IMG/VR virus record: IMGVR_UViG_2740892422_000005 | DNA from: a virus | Taxonomy: Duplodnaviria > Heunggongvirae > Uroviricota > Caudoviricetes | Direction: 5' to 3' (one strand) | Length of the DNA: 30,250 nt | Shown here: positions 2,105 to 2,710 of the stretch, piece by piece | Numbering within the stretch: the first letter of the stretch is position 1 | Layout of the letters: each line of letters begins with the position of its first letter | The notes under the pieces: generated by a model | Database searches by the model: none | What the model saw: the letters and a program-made list of their open reading frames with translations, nothing else | Told to the model about the DNA's origin: nothing | Made by a program: the position numbers and the translations under genes

Positions 2105-2125
2105 AATGTATATAATGCGCTTGTT
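2105..2125 (+). promoter_or_regulatory. Candidate late promoter (PR'-like): perfect -10 TATAAT at 2111-2116
   Basis: TATAAT hexamer about 180 bp downstream of the Q-like gene and about 140 bp upstream of the first tRNA. No convincing -35 at 17-bp spacing; Q-dependent late promoters often lack one. Confidence 0.3.
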
Positions 2126-2255
2126 CCTTCGATGGTGTATTCGAATAACGGATTACTGAATACAGCTATCCCATTAAGGGAACACCGCCATCTGCTCATC
2201 GGGAAGAGCCGACCATCATTTAAGTGGTAGTTCGATACCTCGGTGGCGGTTCTGT

Positions 2256-2331
2256 GCCGACTTAGCTCAGTAGGTAGAGCAACTGACTTGTAATCAGTAG
2301 GTCACCAGTTCGATTCCGGTAGTCGGCACCA
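2256..2331 (+). tRNA. tRNA-Thr (anticodon UGU)
   Basis: Manual cloverleaf: acceptor GCCGACT/AGTCGGC, D-arm GCTC...GAGC, anticodon stem ACTGA/TCAGT with loop CTTGTAA (anticodon TGT), T-loop TTCGATT, encoded CCA. Very close to host thrU as I recall it. Confidence 0.85.
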
Positions 2332-2334
2332 TAT

Positions 2335-2409
2335 GCGGGTATCGTATAATGGTTATTACCTCAGCCTTCCAAGCTGATGATGCGGGTTCGATTCCCGCTA
2401 CCCGCTCCA
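2335..2409 (+). tRNA. tRNA-Gly (anticodon UCC)
   Basis: Manual cloverleaf: acceptor GCGGGTA/TACCCGC, anticodon stem TCAGC/GCTGA with loop CTTCCAA (anticodon TCC), T-arm GCGGGTTCGATTCCCGC, discriminator U then CCA. Resembles host glyT with a compensated acceptor-stem change. Confidence 0.85.
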
Positions 2410-2685
2410 GCATTTGAAATAAGCCTTATTGTATTGCAGCACTGGCGTATTTTTATTACGTGGGAGCAGGTTGTTTCGAAAAAGTATTCTGTTCTCTGGC
2501 TATGATTTGAGGCCAGGTGTAGCCTCAGTGCTGATTTTTTTACGGCAGCAGAATGGTGCATTATCGGTGGAGATTTTGTATTTCCTGGCAGGGCCGGTGA
2601 TGTGCCATCCCGATGTTGTAAACATCGCTAAAAATGACATTGAGATTAATCATATACTAAGCAAAACCTGGAAATACATCCTTTA

Positions 2686-2710
2686 CCGCCTCCACCGGGC
2701 GGTTTTTTTT
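2686..2710 (+). terminator. Intrinsic terminator (tR'-like): CCGCC-loop-GGCGG followed by T8
   Basis: GC stem-loop followed immediately by eight T residues, downstream of the tRNAs and upstream of the lysis genes. Confidence 0.55.

Follow-up and report, generated by a model that had tools for sequence, protein, structure and literature searches.

A widespread tRNA-Thr(UGU)/tRNA-Gly(UCC) cassette between the antitermination and lysis genes of Escherichia coli lambdoid prophages

The IMG/VR virus record IMGVR_UViG_2740892422_000005 is a stretch of 30,250 nucleotides (nt), hereafter the window, in which a pair of tRNA genes lies between a gene for a Q-like late antiterminator and the lysis genes, all on the same (+) strand. 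ARAGORN called exactly two tRNAs across these 30 kb, both on the + strand: a thrU-type tRNA-Thr(UGU) (anticodon tgt) at 2256-2331 and a glyT-type tRNA-Gly(UCC) (anticodon tcc) at 2335-2409, each with its CCA encoded and separated by the 3-nt spacer TAT (2332-2334). Rfam recovered both with family RF00005, at 73.8 bits for tRNA-Thr and 67.8 bits for tRNA-Gly, far above the gathering score of 29. A first-pass annotation, made from the sequence without database searches, had described two clean cloverleaves 3 nt apart that resembled host thrU and glyT. The tRNA finders bear this out, and the tRNA-Thr is identical to K-12 thrU over 76/76 positions, CCA included, while the tRNA-Gly matches glyT at 72/75. 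It is also correct that tyrU and thrT, which accompany these genes in the host, are absent next to the window pair.

The tRNA-Gly differs from glyT by T 2340 (position 6), T 2353 (D-loop, canonical position 20) and A 2400 (position 67). The changes at positions 6 and 67 convert the acceptor-stem pair C6:G67 of glyT into U6:A67, a compensated change, as had been suspected. The pairing states at 6:67 among 131 copies of the gene agree with this: C:G in 73, U:A in 53, U.G in 4, U.C in 1 and C.A in none. A second compensated pair, G48:C64 to A:U, was also seen among the copies. The minimum-free-energy fold of the window tRNA-Gly is the cloverleaf (-28.2 kcal/mol, z -3.8). The identity elements for glycyl-tRNA synthetase (GlyRS) are G1:C72, C2:G71, G3:C70, U73, C35 and C36. 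All of them are kept in the window gene (GCGGGTA...TACCCGC-T-CCA, anticodon TCC), and the differences at 6, 20 and 67 fall outside them. Judged by sequence and predicted fold, both window genes appear to be intact tRNAs of the thrU and glyT types, and they look functional. Among seven distinct sequences that share the window flanks, the tRNAs are 98-99% identical to those of the window and the flanks 77-90%; the two genes appear to be under constraint.

The first-pass annotation had compared the pair with the host thrU-tyrU-glyT-thrT cluster and regarded the tRNA-Gly as a diverged copy. The host operon (thrU-tyrU-glyT-thrT-tufB) does hold the same mature sequences, anticodons and encoded CCA, but its thrU and glyT lie 209 nt apart, compared with 3 nt in the window. 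In blastn searches with short words, similarity to the host locus ended 1-2 nt outside each mature tRNA. Because similarity stops at the mature tRNA edges, with no flank, promoter or spacer homology beyond these 1-2 nt, we rejected a recent segmental capture of the host thrU operon, and the first-pass view of the origin needs to be corrected. Sharing of the mature sequences only would be expected from the demands of host synthetases and modification enzymes, or from occasional conversion by the host copies.

To our knowledge, thrU and glyT are single-copy host genes and the sole decoders of ACA and GGA. Consistent with single-copy host genes, most genomes hold just one place that matches the tRNA pair. 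A 51-nt probe for the Thr-TAT-Gly junction, which is unable to match the host locus, detected the fused pair in 824 of 5,426 complete E. coli genomes (~15%), at 988 places and with up to 5 per genome; every junction-probe match listed carries a RefSeq annotation as tRNA-Gly and tRNA-Thr. A pattern search retrieved the pair from more than 120 IMG/VR viral contigs, which is a lower bound; the pattern fixed 17 nt of the Thr gene and 18 nt of the Gly gene, and variation there is unsampled. The pair is also found in species-representative genomes of Escherichia, Shigella, Citrobacter and Enterobacter. Among phage records, phi467 (Stx2f), vB_EcoS-683R6, PhiR47_1 and SerU-LTIIb carry the same two genes in the same order, SerU-LTIIb in two copies; the phi467 pair, situated between stxAB and the holin gene, does not differ from the host genes. 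The TAT spacer is present in 129/135 instances. The Thr gene is identical to thrU in 73 of 134 scored copies, its commonest changes falling in the D-loop, and the Gly gene is identical to glyT in half of all copies, the exact window allele (U6:A67 plus U20) occurring in 5/134 instances. A Thr/Gly pair at this position had been put forward as unusual, a view that these counts contradict, and identical copies are largely the norm in known phages. We conclude that the window pair is an ordinary example of a common, widespread and already annotated tRNA cassette of E. coli lambdoid prophages.

ARAGORN was also run on 134 instances of the pair. In 58 of them the pair stands alone, and about 65 have a four-gene array in the order CAU-tRNA, a second tRNA, Thr and Gly, with spacers of 1-3 nt. 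The CAU tRNA is identical to ileZ of phage 933W at 74-75 of 76 positions, and the second tRNA to 933W argN at 61/76. The two-tRNA picture of the first pass proved incomplete, as a decayed third tRNA had been missed at 2185-2254 (+). This segment aligns to the second tRNA of the arrays and to 933W argN, with a local score of 38 compared with a shuffle maximum of 24 (0/2,000 shuffles reach the score). The relic lacks about 8 nt of the T-arm region that are present in three relatives (L066, L089 and L104), and its CCA has become TCT. Neither ARAGORN nor Rfam (E up to 10) calls it, and RefSeq leaves it unannotated. Because these three relatives hold the same relic in a form that is 8 nt longer and likewise uncalled by ARAGORN, the argN-type gene appears to be decaying in steps. 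An ileZ relic was sought within 2048-2184 and rejected, the best alignment being no better than shuffles (1,137/2,000 reach its score). Taken together, the relic alignment and the lack of a detectable ileZ relic suggest that the window holds a reduced cassette made up of an argN-type relic, Thr and Gly, from which ileZ is gone. The segment at 2048-2184 is a variant-specific spacer. In comparative searches it was common to 4/134 instances, occurred in 40 of the 5,426 E. coli genomes, never below 99% identity, and was found in no phage record. Unlike the pair-bearing phages and prophages named above, the window thus has a rare variant (40 genomes) of the upstream segment at 2048-2254.

In arrays that are homologous in other respects, the argN-type tRNA body occurs with varied anticodons, namely UCG (933W argN; L140, 2206-2282), UCU (18 copies) and UUU (43 copies). 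The UUU form has an unusual C instead of U at position 33, and the major UUU and UCU forms are identical at 66/77 positions, with a compensated 3:70 pair. Shortened forms are called Leu(UAA) or Phe(AAA) by ARAGORN or are given no definite identity. In five loci (L012, L013, L045, L010 and L106), the varied tRNA starts about 79 nt upstream of Thr. The thrU-type body also occurs with other anticodons: TCT (Arg), together with A31G and G24A, in the first pair copy of SerU-LTIIb (L004, 1122-1197), and TTT in two IMG/VR contigs, one of them L076. The variety of anticodons on the argN-type body may reflect natural anticodon switching. Experimental recruitment of tRNAs between Arg(UCU) and Thr(UGU) identities was reportedly achieved by Saks et al. 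in 1998.

We then located the pair relative to the signals of the late leader. All 24 loci of the same Q family cease to resemble the Q module of the window at 2037-2049. Within this module, a near-invariant block reading CTGCTTCAATT...GGTAYGCTTCGCAWAGCTGTATCGCGAGGC (~1944-1990) recurs in 10 loci with Q genes that share just 84-94% identity. The Q-linked conserved region (1926-1990, +) overlaps the Q stop codon, as the annotated pR' of 933W does. From its conservation and the analogy to 933W, it would comprise pR' together with the Q-utilisation and pause sites, and it is where pR' is expected because any Q has to be inherited together with the promoter and binding site that it recognises. Two candidates for the -10 element of pR', TTCAAT at 1949-1954 (with TGC before it) and TATGCT at 1960-1965, were considered, and neither is convincing. 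The Q module is closed by a tR'-like intrinsic terminator at 2010-2045 (+), detected by scanning and folding, in which a hairpin at 2010-2035 with a 10-bp stem (-16.1 kcal/mol, z -3.07) is followed by TTTTGTTGTTT. The stem is kept in L045 via compensatory changes, and the hairpin resembles the first terminator of 933W (GAACCCGCCATTGAGCGGGTTTT in the window, GAACCCGCCGATGCGCGGGTTTT in 933W; local score 36, shuffle maximum 26). A second intrinsic terminator of the late leader lies at 2685-2711 (+), where a hairpin at 2685-2703 with a 7-bp G+C-rich stem (-11.1 kcal/mol, z -2.7) is followed by eight T; the equivalent site of 683R6 keeps the stem and differs in the loop.

The end of the Q module at about 2047, with a conserved hairpin and its likeness to 933W, indicates that the tRNAs probably lie downstream of a tR'-like terminator and that 2685-2703 is a second terminator. 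The first pass had set the pair ahead of tR', with the late promoter on its other side, but the hairpin most likely to be tR' is that at 2010-2035, which precedes the tRNAs. The terminator scan gave two further hits. One, at 2507-2541 (+), is a weak hairpin followed by a T run that folds no better than shuffles (z -0.52) and is doubtful; the other, at 2733-2757 (-), stands back-to-back with 2685-2711 and has an equivalent in 683R6. The conserved block and terminator at 1944-2045 would yield a terminated leader RNA of about 80 nt, which has no Rfam match. Comparable short RNAs are the lambda 6S RNA and StxS, the small RNA made from pR'-tR' of Stx phages. A search for other known RNAs in 1930-3100 gave sub-threshold Rfam hits only, mostly on terminator hairpins, among them a CyaR-like hit at 2640-2709 (23.6 bits against a threshold of 47) and hits to mir-983 and a Trp leader; we rejected them.

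Several relatives have a promoter-like site of their own for the tRNAs. In 683R6 the promoter scan detected TTGCGA-16-TATTAT, 64 nt before Thr, and in L045 it detected TTTGCA-18-TATTAT directly before ileZ. The motif TTGCnn-N17-TATYAT-GGCCC precedes ileZ in 57 of 125 classified instances. The same scan found no promoter-like site in 2046-2255 of the window, and a hit at 2323-2350 was discarded, as it lies inside the tRNAs, its TATAAT is the D-arm of glyT and it recurs in every relative. The window seems, on this comparison, to have lost the tRNA promoter of the cassette. Cassettes that consist of the pair only (such as L018, L005, L008 and L002) mostly show a conserved TATTAT -10 element some 60 nt before Thr, along with a leader hairpin with covarying arms (GGTTCC...GGAACC in some, GGTTCT...AGAACC in others) that ends 3 nt before Thr and is absent from the window; it may be a precursor-processing or structural element.

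The layout was compared with that of 933W as given in GenBank record AF125520, where the order is pR' over the end of Q, qut, two terminators described as "upstream of the tRNA genes", pT, ileZ-argN-argO, a terminator and stx2. The window has the same succession of Q, presumed promoter region, terminator(s), tRNAs, further terminator and late genes, with a first terminator of similar sequence. The Q proteins belong to distantly related families (PF06530 in 933W, DUF1133 in the window) that cross-hit in both directions. The Thr-Gly arrays carry ileZ and an argN-type tRNA, of which the window keeps the argN-type relic, and the 933W "terminator upstream of the stx genes" is analogous to 2685-2711. 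Unlike 933W, the window has Thr(UGU) and Gly(UCC) as its intact genes, neither of them a 933W gene, and has no argO; the dedicated tRNA promoter pT, which is detectable in relatives, was not found in it, and lysis genes rather than stx follow downstream. Phage 683R6 is like the window in its Q, lysis genes and trkG. A search of one literature collection on ileZ, argN and argO returned nothing relevant.

Phages 21, SfI, Sf6, ST64T and PS3 likewise have tRNAs placed immediately past a promoter and terminator linked to Q, with the lysis genes following. In SfI, tRNA-Asn and tRNA-Thr(UGU) lie downstream of Q, an arrangement shared with Sf6, ST64T, PS3 and phage 21 (PMC3636060). This cassette is a tRNA-Asn(GUU)/tRNA-Thr(UGU) pair (record JX509734), for which a bias toward ACA has been reported, 17.3% vs 7.1% in SfI (PMC3636060). 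It differs from the window in that its Thr gene is not thrU-like and it has no Gly gene. Phage JLK-2012 has what looks like a hybrid of both Thr types followed by TAT-Gly (L006, 2995-3070). Its annotated tRNA-Thr, uncalled by ARAGORN, has a 5' part of the phage 21/SfI type and a 3' part of the thrU type, which suggests that recombination inside tRNA genes can join cassettes.

We consider it likely, with a probability of roughly 0.75, that the pair is an ordinary late-leader cassette that follows Q, its cognate promoter and the first terminator and precedes the second terminator and the lysis genes. From its place at the 5' end of the late operon, it would supply extra gene copies of the host tRNAs for ACA and GGA/GGG. 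With ileZ and, it seems, the array promoter lost, and with the argN-type gene reduced to a relic, transcription of the pair most likely depends chiefly on Q-modified RNA polymerase that passes 2010-2045 after induction. Host RNase P and 3' processing would then free the mature tRNAs, and incomplete stopping at the first terminator may also allow some expression in lysogens. Gene identity, structure, conservation, distribution, layout and codon bias are read directly from the sequences, whereas the position of the promoter, the timing of expression and any benefit to the phage are inferred.

Several observations weigh against this reading. The promoter scan picks out no site in the block next to Q, where conservation and likeness to 933W would place pR'. 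The comparison of tRNAs with flanks covers only seven distinct sequences, and a minority of prophage copies have stem-breaking changes, because of which some copies of the pair seem to be decaying. Given the identity of the Thr gene to host thrU, its conservation may be due to recent gene conversion just as well as to selection on phage fitness. The codon usage of the prophage is ambiguous as well. The + strand open reading frames (ORFs) of the window were compared by Fisher tests with a sample of 40 K-12 core genes, all drawn from a single chromosomal region, and the check proposed by the first pass, an enrichment of ACA and GGA in phage genes, came out positive: ACA makes up 21.0% of Thr codons in the window and 10.5% in the host core (p 2e-7), and GGA 18.8% and 8.7% of Gly codons (p 5e-10), with similar values in the genes downstream of the tRNAs. 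However, other rare codons are enriched more (AGG 7.8-fold, AGA 5.9-fold, CGG 3.3-fold and ATA 2.8-fold, compared with 2.1-fold for ACA and 1.9-fold for GGA), and the window has lost, or keeps only in decayed form, precisely those tRNAs that would read AGA and ATA. The roughly 2-fold enrichment is therefore non-specific and reflects the generally low G+C content at third codon positions (GC3) of the prophage.

One alternative is that the pair is a decaying or neutral passenger, intact only through youth or host gene conversion and of no benefit to the phage. In its favor are the stepwise decay of the adjacent argN-type relic, the missing ileZ and array promoter and lack of any detectable tRNA promoter in the window, the identity of Thr to thrU, the stem-breaking copies in other prophages together with the JLK-2012 hybrid, and the generic nature of the codon enrichment. 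Yet the Gly gene differs from glyT at three positions with its pairing perfect, so it is no fresh conversion product. Moreover, compensated and intermediate 6:67 states occur and C.A never does, conservation is far higher in the tRNAs than in the flanks, and the pair has been kept at 988 places, following several kinds of Q module. A mere passenger is thus unlikely in our estimation. The first-pass annotation had proposed instead that the perfect TATAAT at 2111-2116 is the late promoter, that the hairpin at 2685-2703 is tR' and that the tRNAs are made within a short constitutive leader in lysogens, without Q. Both elements exist, the terminator is strong, none that is convincing lies between it and the tRNAs, and pR' of lambda is constitutive. 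Against this, the TATAAT has no -35 element at 16-18 nt and no correctly spaced TG, the promoter scan leaves it unflagged, and a lone TATAAT is expected by chance about 0.7 times per 1.4 kb on two strands. Its segment, the essentially invariant spacer described above, is confined to 40 of the 5,426 genomes and lacks any phage record, a distribution at odds with the need of a Q to keep its own promoter alongside it. What is inherited with this Q is a block that ends at 2047 and has a conserved terminator inside it, and the 933W record sets pR' over the end of Q and terminators before the tRNAs. We therefore rejected the TATAAT as a promoter and regard Q-independent expression from such a leader as quite unlikely.

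A third explanation is counter-defence, in which spare or nuclease-resistant tRNA copies would sustain translation when tRNA-Thr or tRNA-Gly is cleaved or modified. Other systems offer known examples of phage tRNAs that evade anticodon nucleases, the Gly gene is changed away from the host sequence, and related arrays show altered anticodon loops. But a sequence-specific nuclease would cut the Thr tRNA just as it cuts its identical host counterpart, the changes in Gly fall in the acceptor stem and D-loop, outside the anticodon loop, and half of the copies are identical to glyT; nor are we aware of any anticodon nuclease of E. coli with Thr(UGU) or Gly(UCC) as its target. We consider this explanation very improbable, and retain the reading of the pair as an ordinary late-leader cassette.

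By its gene content, the window can be classed as a Rac-type lambdoid prophage. A prophage of E. coli ETEC1703 is 99.9% identical to it over the first 21 kb and 98.3% over the remainder, and Rac-type markers are present both upstream (racR, ydaS, ydaT and ydaV) and downstream (trkG and ynaK). In ETEC1703 the tape-measure gene is split by IS1; the window (~21172) is without IS1, hence its prophage copy is more intact than the best-matching RefSeq record. Upstream of the tRNAs, a DUF1367 gene (501-1100) and a YbcO-like gene (1100-1390) precede the Q-like gene (1387-1929, +). The Q-like protein matches Pfam DUF1133 with 342.8 bits, PF06530 (Phage_antitermQ) weakly with 27.6 bits, and PHROG phrog_753, "anti-termination protein Q-like", with 255.7 bits; its 683R6 equivalent is annotated "antitermination protein Q". 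Downstream lie the genes for a holin (3097-3312, +; RefSeq essD; Pfam Phage_holin_2_1, 119.8 bits) and a lysozyme (3312-3809, +; RefSeq rrrD; Pfam Phage_lysozyme, 155.2 bits), followed in order by Rz (rzpD), trkG, a ParB-like gene, a TET-associated glycosyltransferase (TAGT) gene, the terminase and morphogenesis genes.

Between the tRNAs and the holin gene, RefSeq annotates an ORF at 2528-2818 ("hypothetical protein", WP_001578250.1). We rejected it, as it matches no Pfam or PHROG family and crosses the terminator at 2685-2703. Its stretch is common to only about 15 of the 134 instances, and the equivalent region of 683R6 has annotated ORFs on the opposite strand instead; the ORF is probably not a gene. 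Small minus-strand ORFs are present at 2939-3064 and 2973-3107. The potassium transporter gene trkG (4390-5865), a known Rac cargo gene with a very low GC3 of 0.33, separates the lysis cassette from the packaging genes. Further on, at 6003-7719 and ahead of the terminase, an intact ParB-N-like gene (ynaK-like, 263 amino acids) overlaps a gene with a TAGT domain, which scores 122 bits; the two may form a DNA-modification module. The window sequence contains two runs of 10 N, masked or unresolved, at 27668-27677 and 30159-30168.

As a discovery, the pair carries little weight, given that the RefSeq pipeline and phage records already annotate the genes and that tRNA cassettes after Q are known from phage 21, 933W and SfI, among others. 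The re-analysis serves annotation: it places the tRNAs after a tR'-like terminator, finds a missed tRNA relic and suggests that one ORF is spurious. In addition, the Gly variant, three bases off host glyT, is distinguishable by tRNA sequencing and would be a direct marker of the timing of late-leader transcription in the prophage. A tentative and rather doubtful extension of these comparisons is that the pair forms the stable half of prophage arrays with anticodon-switched tRNA bodies, which would make lambdoid prophages a natural site of tRNA recruitment. If this is true, with the variants charged and used, the window would represent an end state in which the variable gene has decayed and Thr and Gly have been retained.

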